Virus genome (UHGV): UHGV-0165251
Source: a virus
Reading direction: 5' to 3' (one strand)
Length of the DNA stretch: 26,293 nucleotides
Within the stretch, counting starts at the first letter, position 1. Each line of letters opens with the position of its first letter. Both the position numbers and the translations under genes were made by a program. Positions 1,923 to 8,122 of the stretch are shown piece by piece. The notes beneath the pieces were generated by a model. That model searched no databases. It worked only from the letters and a program-made list of their open reading frames with translations, and had not been told where the DNA came from.

Positions 1923-2207
1923 TTATTCATTGCTGATATTCACCTTTATCGCTAACACCTTTACCGGTTTATCACCGAAGTGCGGATGTGTGATTGTCTT
2001 GATTTCATATCCACCATACGGAACATCAATTCTGCGACTGGAATCGTCGCGCTTCGGATATCCCTTTGTGATAATCAGGCGGTCATATTCCCGGAACATA
2101 ATTCGCTTATTCCAGTAGTCATTACACAGGCGATACTCTTCCGTTTTCTCCCCGCGAATCATGGCATCGAAGTATTCACCTTTGACGGCAAGTTGCAGGT
2201 TAGCCAC
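1923..2207 (-). CDS. ASCH/PUA-like domain protein (DUF3850-like)
   Basis: GTG start 6 nt after aggagg, overlapping the upstream stop; motif LAVKGEYFDAMIRGEKTEEYR resembles ASCH-domain N termini. The upstream part of the listed 142-aa ORF overlaps the Ea22-like gene and is unlikely to be coding. Confidence 0.5.
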   Translation of the reverse strand: MANLQLAVKGEYFDAMIRGEKTEEYRLCNDYWNKRIMFREYDRLIITKGYPKRDDSSRRIDVPYGGYEIKTITHPHFGDKPVKVLAIKVNISNE

Positions 2208-2949
2208 GGTTAACCTCCTGCGGCGGTTCTGGTAGCGGCATCCAGTGTGTGACGTTGCGGCTCTGCGTTTCGAAAAATTCATCACCATCACGGACGACAT
2301 CAAAAAACTCACCGTCTCGATATTGCGCATAAAGAACGAATGCGCCATCACATAAAATAATTACGTGCTGACCATCATCTGGCATTCGCTCACTACAGCT
2401 TATCCAACCATCCGGAGTTACTGGAGAGTTGCCATCCAGCGCGTTCAACTTGTAAGCCTGGCTTACAGGTTCGGCTTCCAGTTCTGCTATGCGCTTCTCT
2501 GATGCTTCAAGTAACGCCTGCTTATCGCGTAGCGCTTCTTCCAGTTCAGCAACATGGCACTCACTATCAATAAGGTTGTTCTCTGCGGCTTCCAGCTCAA
2601 CACGCAGCTTCCCTACCGTTAGCGCAATATCCTCGTTCTCCTGATCACGGTTTTTGATGTATTGCTGGTTTCTTTCCCGTTCATCCAGCAGTTCCAGCAC
2701 GGTAGCCGGATTGGCTGCAGCGATGAATTCAGCATTGGCCTGCTGTTCCATTTGGAAATCTTCATCGAAACCGCTTTCAGGATGCGCTCCTTCAATTCTG
2801 CAAATGGGAATATATCCAGCAACTTCACGATGAATTAGCGCATCATCACCATCAAATCGGCTCTCTCCATATTCGAGCGACCATACACCACACGTTGCTT
2901 TTTCTGCCTTTTCACGCAGTGCCTGATAGTCAATTTTCATACTCGCCAT
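2200..2949 (-). CDS. ea22: Ea22-like protein with a central coiled coil and a DUF551-like C terminus
   Basis: Central segment LLDERERNQQYIKNRDQENEDIALTVGKLRVELE matches lambda Ea22 as I recall it; N and C termini differ. Confidence 0.75.
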   Translation of the reverse strand: MASMKIDYQALREKAEKATCGVWSLEYGESRFDGDDALIHREVAGYIPICRIEGAHPESGFDEDFQMEQQANAEFIAAANPATVLELLDERERNQQYIKNRDQENEDIALTVGKLRVELEAAENNLIDSECHVAELEEALRDKQALLEASEKRIAELEAEPVSQAYKLNALDGNSPVTPDGWISCSERMPDDGQHVIILCDGAFVLYAQYRDGEFFDVVRDGDEFFETQSRNVTHWMPLPEPPQEVNRG

Positions 2950-3581
2950 CCTTCACAGTTGTAATCACGACATCCTTCAAAATCATATGGGCTGTACTGC
3001 CAGGTAATTTTTCCGCAATGCGGACAATTCCAGCGCACCTTACCGCTTCGCGACTTTTTTCTTCTGTTTTGTTTTTTCAACCAGTCAGGTATGACCAAAC
3101 CTGCGCCCTGAACCATTGTTCTGCGGTTAAAATTATTGATATTGAACGTCCGGCGCTTTGCTGCATCGGCAATGGAAAATGGCAACCAAACTATTCCTGG
3201 CTCGTTTTTGTTGGCGACGCTAAAGATGGTTGCTTTACTGAAGTCATCTGTTGGCAATCCACCGTGTTGAAGCCAGTAAACATCGTTGCCGTTCCAGCTA
3301 CCTTTTTTGTAGGCCACATACGCAGTGCAATCTGACTCAATCAGGCTTTCTGTAGGGATGTACTGGCAATCAACGTGCCACACAGCCATTGCATCCACGC
3401 TATCAGCACAAACAGGCTGATCGATATCTCGCCCACAATTCCAGGCTTTTTGGGCTTCTTCCTGCGTGTAAACATGTGCGCGATCGATATCAGAACTGTA
3501 ACCATTGCCGTTATGGCAATGGAATGAGGCGTTAGTACCCACAGTTTCACGCAAGCACATCATGTAAAAGCGGTTATTCAC
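2937..3581 (-). CDS. hypothetical protein with a C-terminal Cys-rich zinc-ribbon-like motif
   Basis: 214-aa ORF; CPHCGK...C..C...C at the C terminus; start overlaps the upstream stop (GTGAATAA); no family recognised. Confidence 0.6.
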   Translation of the reverse strand: MNNRFYMMCLRETVGTNASFHCHNGNGYSSDIDRAHVYTQEEAQKAWNCGRDIDQPVCADSVDAMAVWHVDCQYIPTESLIESDCTAYVAYKKGSWNGNDVYWLQHGGLPTDDFSKATIFSVANKNEPGIVWLPFSIADAAKRRTFNINNFNRRTMVQGAGLVIPDWLKKQNRRKKSRSGKVRWNCPHCGKITWQYSPYDFEGCRDYNCEGWRV

Positions 3582-3837
3582 TGGTTGCCTCCGCTTCCCA
3601 CGTTTTCAGACTTTCACCACAGAACGGGCAAAAGCACATTGCAACGCCACGACCGATATATTTCCCCGAGTGAATTTGAGCAATATCTATGCCTGACTCG
3701 CCGGTGTTTATGTTCACACGCTCCGGGATAAATATGCCTTTACTCTTGAATGTTGGATTTCCATATTCGAGAGATTTTGCCAACACCGCGCACGGTTCTA
3801 TCTTATTGCCATTAATTTGGCATTTTGACTCACTCAC
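3574..3837 (-). CDS. hypothetical Cys-containing small protein
   Basis: GTG start 6 nt after aaaggagg, overlapping the upstream stop (GTGA); contains CPFCG; 87 aa. Confidence 0.5.
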
Positions 3838-4001
3838 TGGTTGCCTCCTTTGCGCCACATCGCATTCAGATATTTGTTTTGATTCACTGATGGAAAAGAA
3901 TTTCTCTTAAGCAATTCCTCTCTCGATGGCATTGGCTTTACGCGTTGGCGAATAATCATTTCTGCCGGAAGAATGCCGGGATTGTATGCAAGTCCTCTCA
4001 T
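3834..4001 (-). CDS. hypothetical small protein (55 aa)
   Basis: ATG preceded by gaggaa at 7 nt; product [55 protein letters not shown]; stop overlaps the next start. Confidence 0.3.
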
Positions 4002-4011
4002 GGTAAATTCC

Positions 4012-4308
4012 TCAGTCATTACTGATAGCGCCATAGCGTGAGCGGTAATTACGCAGGCGCGGGTCGATATATTCAGGGAAGTGGCTATATGTTGCTTTGC
4101 GGAATGGTCGGATTGATGTCTGGTAAATTCGCTCTCGTTCTTCTTTCTCTGCAAGCCATATGCAGTGGCGAAATTCCTTTTCCTCTTTCGTTTCCTGCGG
4201 TAGCGACATTATCAGGTCGTAGTTTTTTCTGAATTTATCCAGCACCTCCGATACGGAATTGCCGGAACAGCGGCGCGCGTCGTCCGCACCATACAGAGGC
4301 GCTGGCAT
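4012..4308 (-). CDS. hypothetical protein (98 aa)
   Basis: ATG 9 nt after aagga, directly downstream of the ssb stop; no family recognised. Confidence 0.5.
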
Positions 4309-4331
4309 AATGGAATCCTTATGTTGCTACT

Positions 4332-4715
4332 TTAGAAGGGAATTGAATCGTCGTATTCAGGATGATTTTGATGATTACTACTTTGCTGCTGCGGGCCATT
4401 TCCTGAAGCTGCAAATCCAATCTTTGCATTCAGTAATTCAAGAGTGATTGATTGACCATTTTGCCCCTGATAAACATCAACCCTGATGTTTTCTCCGGTA
4501 ATTTCTACAATGCCACCTTCAACAAGAACACTACGGTAGTAATCCGCTTGCGCTCCCGGCTTGGCAAATACAACGGCGCTGTAGTTTGTCCATTCTTTCT
4601 TTTTTGTCTGGCGATCGTAATACTGAACGCCAGCACGGATGTTGAATCCGATATTTTCCCCGGCCTGAAACTCTCTTGCGGGCTTGTTTAGTCTTACAGT
4701 AATCGAATGTGCCAT
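4332..4715 (-). CDS. ssb: phage single-stranded DNA-binding protein (OB fold, acidic DDSIPF tail)
   Basis: 127-aa product from the ATG overlapping the erf stop (TAATG); C-terminal ...EYDDSIPF resembles the SSB acidic tail DDDIPF. Confidence 0.7.
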   Translation of the reverse strand: MAHSITVRLNKPAREFQAGENIGFNIRAGVQYYDRQTKKKEWTNYSAVVFAKPGAQADYYRSVLVEGGIVEITGENIRVDVYQGQNGQSITLELLNAKIGFAASGNGPQQQSSNHQNHPEYDDSIPF

Positions 4716-5320
4716 TAAGCAGCCGCTCCTTCTAATTCGTCTCGTCTGATGTTGTAAACGTCCTGCGCTTTGTGCTGCTCCGGTGTGCCTTCGAGCATCT
4801 TCCACGCTTTGGCGAACGCCTGTTTAAGCTCTTCCACGGTGTTTTTCTGCATTGCTGCGTCAGTGAATGCTTTTAGAACCTGTTCAGGTGTAGGTGATGG
4901 TTTTGATTGCTTTGCTGCTGCGTTCTGCTGATGTTTATGCTCGTCTGTATCTGCATCTTTCGCATCATCAATGCCGAACAAACCATTGAGGCAATACTTG
5001 CGTGCATAAGAGCTTGTAGCTCCCGTAACTTGTGCAGAATCCATTCCTTTCTTGCTTTCTTCCTCTCGTGCAAGAGCGGTTGCCGTATGACTGTTTTCGC
5101 CATCGGTAATAGTTGCCGTGGCTTTCACGTAATACCGATCACCAATCAACACAACTTCATCGCTGATTGATAAAAACAGACCATTCAGTAACGGCTTAAC
5201 GCCTTCAAGAATGTCTTCGCAGCTTCTGTATTTATATTTGCCGAATGAGTTGTACTGATTCTTTGGCGCGTTCAGATTCTCCTGAATAGCTGCCAGTCTT
5301 GCGTAAAATTCTTTGCTCAT
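4715..5320 (-). CDS. erf: Erf-family single-strand annealing recombinase
   Basis: Product from MSKEFYARLAAIQENLNAPKNQYNSFGKYKYRSCEDILEGVKPLL... closely matches P22 Erf as I recall it. Confidence 0.85.
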   Translation of the reverse strand: MSKEFYARLAAIQENLNAPKNQYNSFGKYKYRSCEDILEGVKPLLNGLFLSISDEVVLIGDRYYVKATATITDGENSHTATALAREEESKKGMDSAQVTGATSSYARKYCLNGLFGIDDAKDADTDEHKHQQNAAAKQSKPSPTPEQVLKAFTDAAMQKNTVEELKQAFAKAWKMLEGTPEQHKAQDVYNIRRDELEGAAA

Positions 5321-5403
5321 ATGATTGTTCTCAGAATGGACACGGCCCAAGGAAATAACGCTGATTTAATACTTCGGCTCGGGACAAATTAAGGCATACC
5401 CGC

Positions 5404-5580
5404 ATTCCTTCACGGTCGCCATTATGGCGATACCAGAGAGCTTTTTGCGTGTACATGCGTCTCTGTAACTTGCTCTCCTTCACTGTGGTTGCAAGTGACA
5501 TGAATATCTCCTTCGTTACCGATTAAATCTTTCATCTGACGAATGAATTCTTCGTCTGACCAGTTATCTGTAAAACTCAT
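5404..5580 (-). CDS. hypothetical small protein (58 aa)
   Basis: Own translation MSFTDNWSDEEFIRQMKDLIGNEGDIHVTCNHSEGEQVTETHVHAKSSLVSP; ATG overlaps the kil-like stop (ATGA). Confidence 0.3.
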
Positions 5581-5729
5581 TTCCTGCGATACCACGGAAG
5601 GTTGATAGCTGATTTCATCGCTTTATTTGCTTCAAGCCACATTTTGGAATCACCAATAAATCTGGCTATTACTGCTTTGTTTTGTGCAGCACGAAGCATC
5701 TGGTGATTGATGGCTATTTCATTGCGCAT
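5577..5729 (-). CDS. kil: Kil-like small protein
   Basis: Own translation MRNEIAINHQMLRAAQNKAVIARFIGDSKMWLEANKAMKSAINLPWYRRK; FIGD.KM motif as in lambda Kil (...ATFIGDEKM...); start overlaps the cIII-like stop. Confidence 0.5.
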   Translation of the reverse strand: MRNEIAINHQMLRAAQNKAVIARFIGDSKMWLEANKAMKSAINLPWYRRK

Positions 5730-5845
5730 AATAAGACCTCAACTCTTTTCCATCCGTCACGTAATTTACGGGTGATTCGTTCAAGTAAAGATTCATTTAG
5801 TTGGAAGGCACCCATGCGAGCGCCTCCCGCGATTGCGTAAATCAT
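5714..5845 (-). CDS. cIII: CIII-like protease inhibitor
   Basis: Own translation MIYAIAGGARMGAFQLNESLLERITRKLRDGWKRVEVLLCAMK; core ESLLERITRKLRDGWKR matches lambda CIII; aagga 7 nt upstream. Confidence 0.7.
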   Translation of the reverse strand: MIYAIAGGARMGAFQLNESLLERITRKLRDGWKRVEVLLCAMK

Positions 5846-5869
5846 GGGTGGTTCCTTATGTTGGTTTTA

Positions 5870-6838
5870 TTAGTAGGTTATTTTTGTTGCGAATACTTCG
5901 CCTTTTACGATGGCTGTTATGATATTTTTAGCAACATCTTCTGATGCACCAACCTTGATAAGGTCAGCAAGTATTTTGTTATTTACTTCTTTCCGGTGAG
6001 CTTTATCCTTTGCTCTGCGCTCTTCTTCGTCCTTGATTCTTTTTTCTTCTGCTATTCTGGCTTGCTCTTTTGCTTCAGCATCGCGACGGATTTGTTCAGC
6101 ATCCTCCTGTGCTTTTCTGCGTTCTGCTTCAATTGCTGCCTGCTTTTCTCTTTCAGCTCGTTCTGCTGCCTCTTTTGCTTCGCGCTGTGCTCGTTGCTCG
6201 GCTTCAATGCGTTCACGCTCTGCACGTTCCGCTGCGGCCTTAGCTTCTGCTTCTCGCCTTGCTGCTGCTTCAATTTCGGCTTTTGCCTTTGCTTCGGCTT
6301 CTGCTCTGGCTTTCTCTTCAGCTTCTCTTTTTAAGCGCTCTTCATGCTCTCGCTTTTCCCGCTCCGTTTTGAGTCTTGCCTCTTCTCTTTGGCGGTCAAA
6401 TTCGCGATCCATCAAAATCGCTATTTCATGGTCAGACTCAATTTGCTTTGCGAGAGCTTCAGCTGCTGCCTTAGCTTCTTCTTCGGCTTTAATCCGCGCC
6501 TGTTCTTCCTCATAATCAGTAAGAGGCTGGCGTGCCTTGGCTTTCAGCTCATCAAGGCGATCACGCACTGTCTTGCGGTTAGCATCAATTAGCTTTGGAA
6601 TTTCTTTCAGTTCAGCAACAAGGTCTTTGCCAAGACCATCGAGATATGTTTTCGTCTGCGCAACTTTATACGCCAGAGAAGCGATCTCCTTTCTGCCCTT
6701 TGCCGTTGTGATATCAGGCACAAAGGACATAACTTCACGTTCAACCTTTTGAAGGATTTCTTCAATCTGGTCGGAAGACTGAAATACAGTCATTGCATTT
6801 GCTTTTTCAATAACAACTAAATCTGTTACTTCACTCAT
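5870..6838 (-). CDS. hypothetical coiled-coil protein with a long charged E/A/K/R-rich central region
   Basis: 322-aa ORF; ggagga RBS; ~150-aa stretch of AEAKAKAEIEAAARREAEAKAAAERAERE-type repeats between distinct N- and C-terminal domains. Confidence 0.75.
   Translation of the reverse strand: MSEVTDLVVIEKANAMTVFQSSDQIEEILQKVEREVMSFVPDITTAKGRKEIASLAYKVAQTKTYLDGLGKDLVAELKEIPKLIDANRKTVRDRLDELKAKARQPLTDYEEEQARIKAEEEAKAAAEALAKQIESDHEIAILMDREFDRQREEARLKTEREKREHEERLKREAEEKARAEAEAKAKAEIEAAARREAEAKAAAERAERERIEAEQRAQREAKEAAERAEREKQAAIEAERRKAQEDAEQIRRDAEAKEQARIAEEKRIKDEEERRAKDKAHRKEVNNKILADLIKVGASEDVAKNIITAIVKGEVFATKITY
5996..6400. repeat. low-complexity purine/pyrimidine-skewed repeat DNA encoding the charged repeat region
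   Basis: Imperfect reiteration of ctgcttc/ttctgc/ttttgc units; generates spurious long ORFs in other frames. Confidence 0.6.
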
Positions 6839-6876: not shown

Positions 6877-6982
6877 AAAGAAGATTTCCAATAATCAGAA
6901 CAAGTCGGCTCCTGTTTAGTTACGAGCGACATTGCTCCGTGTATTCACTCGTTGGAATGAATACACAGTGCCTATTCGCAGC

Positions 6983-7309
6983 CTACATAATCATTCCGGT
7001 TATTATTACCATTTCAATATCACTATCTTTCATAATGATTGGTGTTGAGTTATCAACTTTACTTTTACTCCATTTTCCTGCATCAGTTTTTACCGCTCCA
7101 CAATAAGAAAGCCAATCATCATCACAATGTTCTGGATCACTGATTCTGACAAGAACTCGTGATAGTGCTTTTTCGATACTTTCATCACAATTAGCATTTG
7201 TGTAATTGCCGTGAGACAATTTCAAATCGTTAACTTCATCTTCATTGGCATCAAAAATATAGATTTCAGTCGACTCTGGAACATTTTCATAAACCATTAA
7301 AACTTTCAT
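6983..7309 (-). CDS. hypothetical acidic protein (108 aa) at the position lambda uses for ral
   Basis: ORF rich in D/E (net charge roughly -11 by my count); no family recognised. Confidence 0.6.
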   Translation of the reverse strand: MKVLMVYENVPESTEIYIFDANEDEVNDLKLSHGNYTNANCDESIEKALSRVLVRISDPEHCDDDWLSYCGAVKTDAGKWSKSKVDNSTPIIMKDSDIEMVIITGMIM

Positions 7310-7324
7310 TTTTACCCCGTATTG

Positions 7325-7352
7325 TTTATGCCAAAAATAAAGGCCTACTATG
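7325..7352. repeat. 28-bp direct repeat, copy 1 (tttatgccaaaaataaaggcctactatg)
   Basis: 27/28 identical to copy 2 at 8095..8122; the same motif lies downstream of ral in lambda as I recall it. Confidence 0.7.
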
Positions 7353-7368
7353 CGTCCTAGTAGAATGC

Positions 7369-7827
7369 CTAATTTTCTGTTTCTTGGTTGTGTCCAAAGT
7401 TATATTCAATATCTGGTGTTGATGTATCAATATTCTTCATCCCATCAACAAGAGTTGATACAACAGCCAAATCTTGTTTGATTCTCATTAAATGGTATTT
7501 CTTCCGGCGCAATAAACTTTCAATGGCAAGTTTCTTCGTTGGGAATGCAAAAGATCTTTCTGCATTTTTTGCTACTTTCTTAATTTCATATCTATTTCTC
7601 TTTTGTTTCCATTCCTGTAACCACTGATTTGGTGCTGGTTTAAAATTAACGATCCAATGCGCAGGAACCAACCATGCATAATGCTCTGTCTGATGAAAAG
7701 CTATATATTGAAGTGCGAATATTTTGATTCCATCTTCTTCAACTGTCGCCTGGAATCTCCAGAAAACAGGCATTCCATCATGTTCAGTTTCTGATTCAGG
7801 AAAAGGTACGCTCCATGATATTGTCAT
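7369..7827 (-). CDS. hypothetical protein (152 aa), second gene of the repeat-flanked cassette
   Basis: Start overlaps the upstream stop (ATGA); no family recognised. Confidence 0.65.
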   Translation of the reverse strand: MTISWSVPFPESETEHDGMPVFWRFQATVEEDGIKIFALQYIAFHQTEHYAWLVPAHWIVNFKPAPNQWLQEWKQKRNRYEIKKVAKNAERSFAFPTKKLAIESLLRRKKYHLMRIKQDLAVVSTLVDGMKNIDTSTPDIEYNFGHNQETEN

Positions 7828-8078
7828 ATCTCACCTTCAAGAGCTTTGCTGATTGCTGACAGTGCTTTCGATACTTCATCAGGATAATGGTCATTCCATT
7901 TTTGCTTGTATGCCTTGTTTAGCATCGCTTGCAGAGCTTCGAGCAAATCAGGAGCTGCCTCCATCAATCTCACATCACCTCGATGGATGGTTGTATCGTC
8001 AAACGTGAAATAAACCCCATCATCGTTAAATCCAGCGCCAACAACATTCCATGGCCTTTTCATTCTTCCTACTGTCAT
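7824..8078 (-). CDS. hypothetical protein (84 aa), first gene of the repeat-flanked cassette
   Basis: gaggtga RBS; translationally coupled to the 152-aa gene; no family recognised. Confidence 0.65.
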   Translation of the reverse strand: MTVGRMKRPWNVVGAGFNDDGVYFTFDDTTIHRGDVRLMEAAPDLLEALQAMLNKAYKQKWNDHYPDEVSKALSAISKALEGEI

Positions 8079-8094
8079 TATTCACCTCTGTGTA

Positions 8095-8122
8095 TTTATG
8101 CCAAAAATAAAGGCCGACTATG
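8095..8122. repeat. 28-bp direct repeat, copy 2 (tttatgccaaaaataaaggccgactatg)
   Basis: Direct repeat of 7325..7352; contains the stop codon of the 8118..8432 gene. Confidence 0.7.

Follow-up and report, generated by a model that had tools for sequence, protein, structure and literature searches.

Which recombination genes take the place of lambda exo-bet-gam in the early-left operon of this phage, and what, if anything, acts there on the host RecBCD? The question was raised by positions 4332-5845 of the UHGV virus genome UHGV-0165251, where a sequence-only reading had seen a P22-type Erf gene and a putative SSB gene in a lambda backbone, and no Gam or Abc homolog. The locus was analyzed within the window, meaning the whole stretch of 26,293 nt. 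It is very probable that the region is a recombination module of the HK97/HK022 type, which lies in the early-left (pL) operon of an E. coli phage of mosaic, P22-like/lambdoid make-up and works by the mechanism that we infer below. The module is not new, being a common and catalogued cassette of HK97/HK022-like E. coli phages. The main use of the present analysis is a correction: the gene adjoining the locus is abc2.

Gene content and order of the early-left segment

All genes of the module lie on the minus strand, and their identities and order, given here in the order of transcription, can be read directly from the window.

5714..5845, minus strand: cIII, 43 aa, FtsH-inhibiting lysogeny factor (Pfam Lambda_CIII, phrog_550)
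5577..5729, minus strand: kil, 50 aa, lambda-type cell-division inhibitor (Pfam Lambda_Kil)
5422..5580, minus strand: small ORF A, 52 aa (start codon ATG at 5580), in the slot of P22 arf (phrog_2123)
5331..5501, minus strand: small ORF B, 56 aa, in a different frame from ORF A, which it overlaps (phrog_1723)
4715..5320, minus strand: erf, 201 aa, Erf-family single-strand annealing protein (Pfam ERF)
4332..4715, minus strand: divergent phage SSB, 127 aa, HK97 gp40 family ("SSB-1b"), with an OB-fold core, a Q/P-rich linker and a DDSIPF tip (phrog_44, hhalign, fold prediction)
4012..4308, minus strand: abc2, 98 aa, RecC-binding RecBCD modifier (Pfam Anti-RecBCD_p2, phrog_656)
3834..4001, minus strand: DUF2737 gene, homolog of P22 orf56, 55 aa (phrog_1117)

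The tight coupling of these genes, already remarked upon from the letters alone, is plain in the sequence: a 16-nt overlap joins cIII to kil, the kil stop codon overlaps the start of small ORF A as ATGA, and a stop-start overlap, TAATG, links erf to the SSB gene. The abc2 gene begins 24 nt beyond the stop codon of the SSB gene, outside 4332-5845. The plus-strand ORFs within 4332-5845, which are 30-87 aa long, run antisense to strongly conserved coding genes. A scan of the whole window against Rfam returned no RNA family at the gathering threshold.

The lambda-like cIII and Kil-like genes that had been recognized upstream are both supported by family models. The cIII protein matches Lambda_CIII (E 4e-15, 56 bits against a cut-off of 25.7) and phrog_550 (E 1.6e-20); with 72% identity to P22 C3 over 39 aa and 40% to the cIII of HK97, it is of the P22/Sf101 type. 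Kil matches Lambda_Kil (E 1.7e-20, 72.6 bits against a cut-off of 27.6), agrees with HK97 Kil at 100% identity, and has no similarity to P22 Kil.

Between kil and erf lie the two small ORFs A (5422-5580) and B (5331-5501), which the sequence-only reading did not mention. ORF A matches phrog_2123 over its full length (52/52, E 3.7e-41); with gp42 of HK97 it shares 86% identity, in the N-terminal half of that protein. It occupies the position of P22 Arf, to which it has a weak match of 17 aa (47% identity, E 0.16) around the motif SDEEFI. ORF B matches phrog_1723 (E 1.9e-35), and its identity is 75% both to gp42.1 of HK97 and to gp42 in its C-terminal half. Among 80 related loci from IMG/VR, the 52-aa form of ORF A was found in 52. 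A programmed frameshift joining the two ORFs was considered and rejected: compared with A, ORF B is read in the +1 frame, and only 1 of the 80 loci has the two fused, which points to ordinary indel variation.

As for the surrounding genome, the description "lambda backbone" turns out to be loose. The best matches of the whole window are to the P22-like Lederbergvirus phages HF4s, CUS-3, HK620 and vB_EcoP-611R6, together with int-xis genes of the lambda/HK97 type. The absence of lambda exo-bet-gam was correctly noted. No Exo- or Bet-type Pfam family was found among the 20 early-left ORFs scanned, and the best tblastn match to lambda Gam in the window has an E value of 0.68.

The annealing protein and its 127-residue neighbor

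The erf gene at 4715-5320 encodes what is, by its sequence, an annealing protein of the ERF superfamily. Residues 5-143 match the Pfam ERF model (PF04404) with E 2.1e-44 and 151.6 bits against a cut-off of 25, in agreement with the earlier recognition of an Erf-family gene. That reading had called the protein near-identical to P22 Erf and had proposed an alignment as the check. The alignment gave 74.6% identity over 205 columns, which is far from the low identity that would speak against an Erf, but "near-identical" overstates the likeness: residues 1-150 are 91% identical, while the last 51 residues (151-201) are only 33% identical. The protein to which it is identical, at 100%, is the Erf of HK97.

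Directly after erf comes the 127-aa ORF, whose protein ends in EYDDSIPF. It had been called an SSB from this tail alone. There is no Pfam or NCBIfam match at E <= 0.01, the SSB model PF00436 included, and searches of the PDB sequences with the single protein and with a profile of 51 sequences gave only non-significant matches to SSBs (E 0.11-0.49). These agree in direction with an SSB and are no proof alone. The call is now backed by other comparisons. The protein matches phrog_44, "single strand DNA binding protein", with E 2.5e-27, and the profile of the gp40 family aligns by hhalign with E. coli SSB at 93.8% probability (E 1.7e-7, 33% identity), although only 57 columns are covered. The AlphaFold2 model has a mean pLDDT of 84, rising to about 93 in the first ~100 residues, where it shows an OB topology of strands, a helix at 54-62 and further strands. 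When this model was compared with the PDB by Foldseek, the top matches were almost all SSBs (E from 1.3e-4, probability 1.0), with a moderate structural similarity (TM 0.35-0.5, rmsd about 6-7 Å); lower among the matches were PriB, an OB protein that is not an SSB, and a subunit of an RNA-editing complex.

The rest of the protein also follows the SSB plan. The pLDDT falls below 50 between about residues 105 and 120, as in a disordered linker, and among 51 homologs this linker is variable in length and rich in Q, P and G, while the tip reads D(D/E)xIPF or PPF in most. In the related loci the C-terminal end is (D/E)DSIPF in 77 of 80, and the DDSIPF of this protein comes very close to the host tip, DDDIPF in E. 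coli SSB. Three conserved aromatic residues, Y32, W42 and F50, align with W40, W54 and F60 of E. coli SSB (full-protein numbering), which are the residues that stack on ssDNA in the SSB-ssDNA crystal structure. Thus the call of a very divergent SSB of the bacterial type is confirmed at the level of the sequence profile, the profile alignment and the predicted OB fold. The protein is 93% identical to HK97 gp40, which a 2025 survey of lambdoid recombination modules lists as "SSB-1b"; the SSBs of such modules are in general experimentally unstudied (PMC12315714).

It is worth considering what else a protein of this kind could do. Such a conserved tip, so close to that of the host SSB, could serve mainly as a decoy or adaptor, which competes with E. 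coli SSB for ExoI, RecQ, RecO or PriA or redirects such partners to phage DNA, and the OB-like core would then be a mere scaffold; a core too divergent for the Pfam SSB model, which superposes only moderately on SSB structures and has PriB among its fold matches, would agree with this. We consider it unlikely, since the aromatics are kept at the positions of the ssDNA-stacking residues and nothing of the SSB architecture (core, disordered linker, tip) has been lost. The comparable SSB of phage HK620 does bind ssDNA (PMC5928155), and a decoy role and the coating of ssDNA are in any case not mutually exclusive. A different role is suggested by gene position, because the 127-aa gene fills the slot between erf and abc2 that belongs to abc1 in P22, and the HK620 gene in the same slot was first named abc1 (PMC5928155). 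The protein might then stand in for Abc1 and act with Abc2 on RecBCD instead of on ssDNA. This is highly improbable: no BLASTP match between the protein and Abc1 was obtained at E <= 10, its predicted fold and tail are SSB-like, and the HK620 "abc1" itself proved to be an SSB (PMC5928155).

If the 127-residue protein is a phage SSB, the divergent C-terminus of Erf invites the question of whether the two are matched. Annealase C-terminal domains are indeed shuffled between modules. The HK97-type Erf C-terminus is found beside a gp40-like SSB in 80 of 80 loci, a near-clonal set, and the P22-type C-terminus in 0 of 80. In 76 of 80 loci the P22-type C-terminus is attached to another kind of annealing domain. 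It is paired with Abc1 in 47 loci; in the one non-Abc1 locus that was inspected, it occurs together with a canonical SSB and a DnaQ-like exonuclease. A clean rule linking the type of Erf C-terminus to the downstream gene was not supported, given the near-clonality of the first set and the occurrence of the P22 type with either Abc1 or a canonical SSB, and for this reason co-adaptation is not claimed. One may still entertain, as a rather doubtful idea, that the C-terminus of about 50 residues is an adaptor for the DDSIPF tip of its own SSB, that the two genes are a portable pair adapted to each other, and that exchange of the C-terminus re-wires the annealase to another SSB or RecBCD-modifier partner.

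Abc2 and a proposed course of recombination

The sequence-only reading held that the module has neither a Gam nor an Abc homolog, and suggested that an inhibitor of RecBCD, if there is one, might hide among the unknown genes further down the operon. The statement is right for Gam and for Abc1, whose best tblastn match in the window has an E value of 4.0, but abc2 is present at 4012-4308 on the minus strand. The whole protein (1-98) matches 97 of the 97 positions of Anti-RecBCD_p2 (PF11043) with E 1.8e-61 and 204.8 bits against a cut-off of 25. It also matches phrog_656 (E 1.2e-55), a tblastn search with P22 Abc2 finds it with E 1e-58, and its identity is 91.8% to the Abc2 of P22 and 93.9% to that of HK97. 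A module of Erf and SSB that lacks any RecBCD modulator, with its inhibitor hidden downstream, would be in line with the missing Gam and Abc1 and with downstream ORFs that have no Pfam family; with such an abc2 only 24 nt past the SSB gene, this reading is refuted and its probability is close to nil. There is no missing RecBCD inhibitor to look for.

The gene that follows abc2 encodes a DUF2737 protein (phrog_1117, E 2.1e-37), with 92% identity to its HK97 counterpart and 78% to P22 orf56. Several ORFs downstream of the module have no Pfam family. The window contains no Chi site, which fits a phage with an anti-RecBCD gene, though only 0.6 would be expected by chance.

P22 Abc2 was found to bind RecC, with loss of the Chi response, and the structure of the complex was accompanied by a model in which Abc2-modified RecBCD loads Erf (PMC9836394). 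At 92% identity, the Abc2 of the window would be expected to bind RecC and to abolish the Chi response in the same way. Drawing on such experiments on P22 homologs and on the conserved SSB architecture, the following course of events can be proposed. Abc2 would bind the RecC of host RecBCD, which would no longer respond to Chi, and the modified enzyme would supply the end resection that this nuclease-less module does not have. The resulting 3' single strand would be coated by the phage SSB. Erf, as a ring-forming annealing protein, would be loaded there, probably through the acidic DDSIPF tip of the SSB and/or by the Abc2-modified RecBCD, and would anneal the loaded strand to a complementary strand. 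The outcome would be the circularization of terminally redundant, headful-packaged DNA, together with recombination-dependent replication. The binding of ssDNA by the 127-aa protein, any contact between Erf and SSB, and the division of labor among the proteins are the conditional parts of this scheme. The trio of Erf, SSB and Abc2 is a candidate for a compact, nuclease-free recombineering cassette.

Relatives of the module

The locus had been presented as a P22-type module in a lambda backbone. Rather than an unusual graft, it is the standard module of HK97, HK022 and Sf101, and the cassette recurs with a nucleotide identity of 96-98% in Sf101, mEp213, mEp043, HK633, HK544, HK97, HK022, CUS-3 and Stx phages, where its genes are annotated as erf, hypothetical or gp40, and abc2. 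At least 80% of the module is held by 559 of 5426 complete E. coli genomes, or about a tenth. Among the lambdoid prophages of E. coli and Shigella it is one of the commonest recombination cassettes, and a published table already gives its composition. In the IMG/VR loci with the same Erf N-domain, a gp40-like gene, abc2 and the DUF2737 gene are present in 80 of 80; since these loci are nearly clonal, with an Erf N-domain that is 100% identical throughout, their unbroken association says little about a functional dependence.

The HK97/HK022 module (cIII-kil-gp42-erf-gp40-abc2-DUF2737) has the same genes in the same order, with a nucleotide identity of 96% over the module; in HK97, Erf and Kil are 100% identical to those of the window, gp40 93% and Abc2 94%. 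HK97 cIII is only 40% identical, gp42 is a single ORF of 83 aa in which A and B are fused, unlike the two overlapping ORFs seen here, which are the majority form, and the last residues of gp40 read DDSNPILI where DDSIPF stands here. Of the sequenced phages, the closest in this region is the Lederbergvirus Sf101, with 98.3% nucleotide identity over 86% of positions 3500-6000. Sf101 shares the split small ORFs, erf, the 127-aa hypothetical protein, abc2, the DUF2737 gene and a 322-aa ORF upstream of cIII, and differs in the genes farther downstream, on the ea side, and in its integrase.

The P22 module (c3-kil-arf-erf-abc1-abc2-orf56) shares the overall order and likewise has no phage exonuclease. 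The likeness to P22 is high in the N-terminal domain of Erf (91%), in Abc2 (92%) and in orf56 (78%). However, P22 has the unrelated Abc1 (94 aa) where the SSB sits here, the C-terminal 51 aa of Erf are 33% identical, Kil is unrelated, and the similarity to Arf is marginal.

The HK620 module (hkaM-sak4-ssb-abc2) has the same layout, in which an annealase is followed by a phage SSB with a host-like tip and then by Abc2, but its annealase is Sak4, a RecA-like protein, in place of Erf. The HK620 SSB stimulates the neighboring annealase through its last six residues (PMC5928155). The survey separates that SSB ("SSB-2"), which lacks homology to the bacterial protein, from gp40, a divergent SSB of the bacterial type (PMC12315714). 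Lambda Red (exo-bet-gam) likewise lies downstream of cIII and kil in the pL operon, and serves the same task of end processing and strand annealing. The module described here has no homolog of Exo, Bet or Gam, and Abc2 would co-opt RecBCD, which in lambda is blocked by Gam. The published classification includes a class anti-RecBCD+ / SSB+ / nuclease- / SAP+, with HK75 as the prototype (PMC12315714).

Gene order and the proposed modulation of RecBCD

The minus strand carries every gene in and around 4332-5845. The genes are listed here in the order of transcription.

Genes of the module and their family matches
5714-5845, minus strand: cIII, 43 aa; Pfam Lambda_CIII, E 4e-15
5577-5729, minus strand: kil, 50 aa; Pfam Lambda_Kil, E 1.7e-20
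5422-5580, minus strand: small ORF A, 52 aa; phrog_2123
5331-5501, minus strand: small ORF B, 56 aa; phrog_1723; overlaps ORF A in another frame
4715-5320, minus strand: erf, 201 aa; Pfam ERF, E 2.1e-44
4332-4715, minus strand: ORF ending DDSIPF, 127 aa; phrog_44
4012-4308, minus strand: abc2, 98 aa, just beyond the interval of the sequence-only reading; Pfam Anti-RecBCD_p2
3834-4001, minus strand: DUF2737 gene, 55 aa

The matches to Lambda_CIII, Lambda_Kil, ERF and Anti-RecBCD_p2 are all far over the curated Pfam cut-offs and the PHROGs are concordant, which confirms the lambda-like cIII and Kil genes noted earlier from the sequence. The tight translational coupling noted at the same time is also real, since there is a 16-nt overlap between cIII and kil, an ATGA at the stop/start of kil and ORF A, and a TAATG at that of erf and the 127-aa gene. 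The start of abc2 lies 24 nt past the 127-aa gene and has its own AAGGA ribosome-binding motif.

The sequence-only reading had described an Erf and SSB module without any Abc homolog or other RecBCD modulator, and had suggested that an inhibitor might be among the unknown genes further downstream. This reading is refuted: the abc2 product matches Anti-RecBCD_p2 with E 1.8e-61 (204.8 bits) and is 91.8% identical to P22 Abc2, and there is therefore no hidden inhibitor to invoke. As had been stated, no lambda Gam homolog was found in the window (tblastn, best E 0.68); nor was a homolog of P22 Abc1 (best E 4.0). The proposed replacement of exo-bet agrees with the absence of any Exo- or Bet-type family among the 20 early-left ORFs scanned. 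The Chi site (GCTGGTGG) occurs 0 times on both strands of the window (1-26293), which fits an anti-RecBCD module, with small weight since just 0.6 sites are expected by chance. An Rfam scan of 1-26293 gave no family at the gathering threshold.

The small ORFs match two PHROGs with the odd label "recombinase", phrog_2123 and phrog_1723. In P22 the place between kil and erf is taken by arf, whose product they resemble only marginally ("SDEEFI", E 0.16). HK97 has them joined as the single 83-aa gp42, whereas the window has two overlapping ORFs (5331-5580, minus strand). Of 80 loci, 52 have the 52-aa first ORF seen here, 21 a 56-aa version, and just 1 the fused form of 83 aa.

The 127-aa protein as a putative divergent SSB

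Pfam and NCBIfam gave no match for the 127-aa protein, and PDB sequence searches returned SSB matches that were non-significant only. Four independent lines nevertheless support its reading as a very divergent bacterial-type SSB, in agreement with the phage SSB first suggested by the DDSIPF tail. The first is its match to phrog_44, "single strand DNA binding protein" (E 2.5e-27). The second is the alignment of a profile of 51 homologs to E. coli SSB (93.8% probability, E 1.7e-7), which places Y32, W42 and F50 (full-protein numbering) opposite W40, W54 and F60, the residues that stack on ssDNA in the crystal structure of the E. coli complex; all three positions show no or almost no variation among the homologs. 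The third is the AlphaFold2 model (mean pLDDT 84; ~93 over the first ~100 residues), in which strands, a single helix (54-62) and further strands make up a predicted OB topology. Its best Foldseek matches in the PDB are nearly all bacterial, mitochondrial or apicoplast SSBs, with PriB and an RNA-editing complex subunit further down; the E-values start from 1.3e-4 with probability 1.0, and the superposition is moderate (TM 0.35-0.5, identity 13-18%). The fourth is the architecture: a conserved core of ~100 aa, then a linker rich in Q, P and G, of variable length and predicted disorder, and finally an acidic D(D/E)xIPF or PPF tip. The ending (D/E)DSIPF is found in 77 of 80 related viral contigs.

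That the protein is mainly a tail decoy is less likely, given its conserved aromatic residues and the completeness of its SSB architecture. The protein could also be thought of as a substitute for Abc1 acting on RecBCD; its gene position is the sole argument for this, and the same argument once got the HK620 SSB misnamed abc1 (PMC5928155). A divergent SSB is the reading we prefer. In the HK97 locus (4380-4408; window 4332-4360, minus strand) gp40 ends in ...DDSNPILI, the IPF tip having been destroyed by small indels. The reference phage HK97 is thus an outlier, and its SSB may be partly disabled.

Erf, its C-terminus and the flanking genes

Erf matches HK97 Erf at 100% identity and is clearly a member of the annealing family, as had been claimed. 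Its supposed near-identity to P22 Erf holds for the annealing domain (residues 1-150, 91%) and fails for the last 51 residues (151-201, 33%); the overall identity is 74.6%. Among the 80 IMG/VR loci retrieved with the P22-type Erf C-terminal domain, 76 carry its ~57 aa on a different, unrelated N-terminal annealing domain, in a 235-aa protein (L095 2503-3210; L132 2503-4274). Modules therefore exchange annealase C-termini, a shuffling also suggested by PMC12315714. Abc1 follows the P22-type C-terminus in 47 of the 80; in L132, the one locus read without Abc1, a canonical SSB and a DnaQ-like exonuclease follow. This SSB has 15 extra residues beyond its DFDDDIPF tip. Because no clean rule tying the type of C-terminus to the partner was found in the retrieved loci, co-adaptation of annealase and partner is speculative.

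Upstream of cIII, across a 24-nt gap, lies a 322-aa ORF (5870-6838, minus strand) with a very high content of E, K, A and R, which is probably a coiled coil. It has no Pfam family, matches phrog_1376 and phrog_21365, and is annotated in phage records as "TolA", "hypothetical" or "antitoxin, similar to phi80 Agt". The GC content then falls to 0.37-0.38 over 6900-8100, against ~0.46 on both flanks. This stretch has minus-strand ORFs at 6983-7309, 7369-7827 and 7824-8078, with no Pfam family, and has the look of a moron-type insertion separating N from the recombination module. On the other side, a 249-aa protein (2200-2949, minus strand) with an Ead/Ea22-like domain (E 1.2e-33) and a C-terminal DUF551 (E 6.8e-22) is typical content of the lambdoid "ea" region.

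Proposed mechanism and known relatives

Gene content, order and predicted folds come from this analysis; the rest of the mechanism is drawn from homologs. Under the model proposed for Abc2, RecBCD becomes a resection machine that no longer depends on Chi and supplies ssDNA to Erf and not RecA; phages bearing Abc2 are typically without their own exonuclease (PMC9836394), as is the module here. RecBCD altered by Abc2 would then resect without responding to Chi and hand its product to Erf, with the phage SSB covering the single strand that resection exposes. The phage SSB of HK620 stimulates the adjacent annealase only when its final six residues are present (PMC5928155); by analogy, the DDSIPF tip probably serves to recruit Erf, host proteins that interact with SSB, or both. 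At its right end the window has matches to the terminase and portal genes of P22-like phages. Such phages package by the headful mechanism and depend on recombination to circularise their terminally redundant DNA; this is Erf's classical essential function and may be the one it serves here.

Sf101, mEp213, mEp043, HK633, HK544, HK106, HK97, HK022, CUS-3, HF4s and many Stx-converting phages share the cassette with 96-98% nucleotide identity, and there the annotation runs erf, then gp40, hypothetical or "ssb protein", then abc2. At least 591 IMG/VR contigs encode this Erf N-domain; the HK97-type Erf C-terminus, the gp40-like gene, abc2 and DUF2737 are all present in 80 of 80 IMG/VR loci fetched, and 559 of 5426 complete E. 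coli genomes hold at least 80% of the module. The original observation is largely real, right on Erf and SSB and wrong on the absence of Abc. The best whole-window matches are P22-like Lederbergvirus phages, in combination with an int-xis of the lambda/HK97 type, and "lambdoid mosaic" is a better description than "lambda backbone". The module itself is well known, and very common. A survey published in 2025, covering 325 lambdoid phages, named HK97 gp40 "SSB-1b" from its predicted fold and listed 27 phages, HK75 being the prototype, under the class anti-RecBCD+ / SSB+ / nuclease- / SAP+ (PMC12315714).
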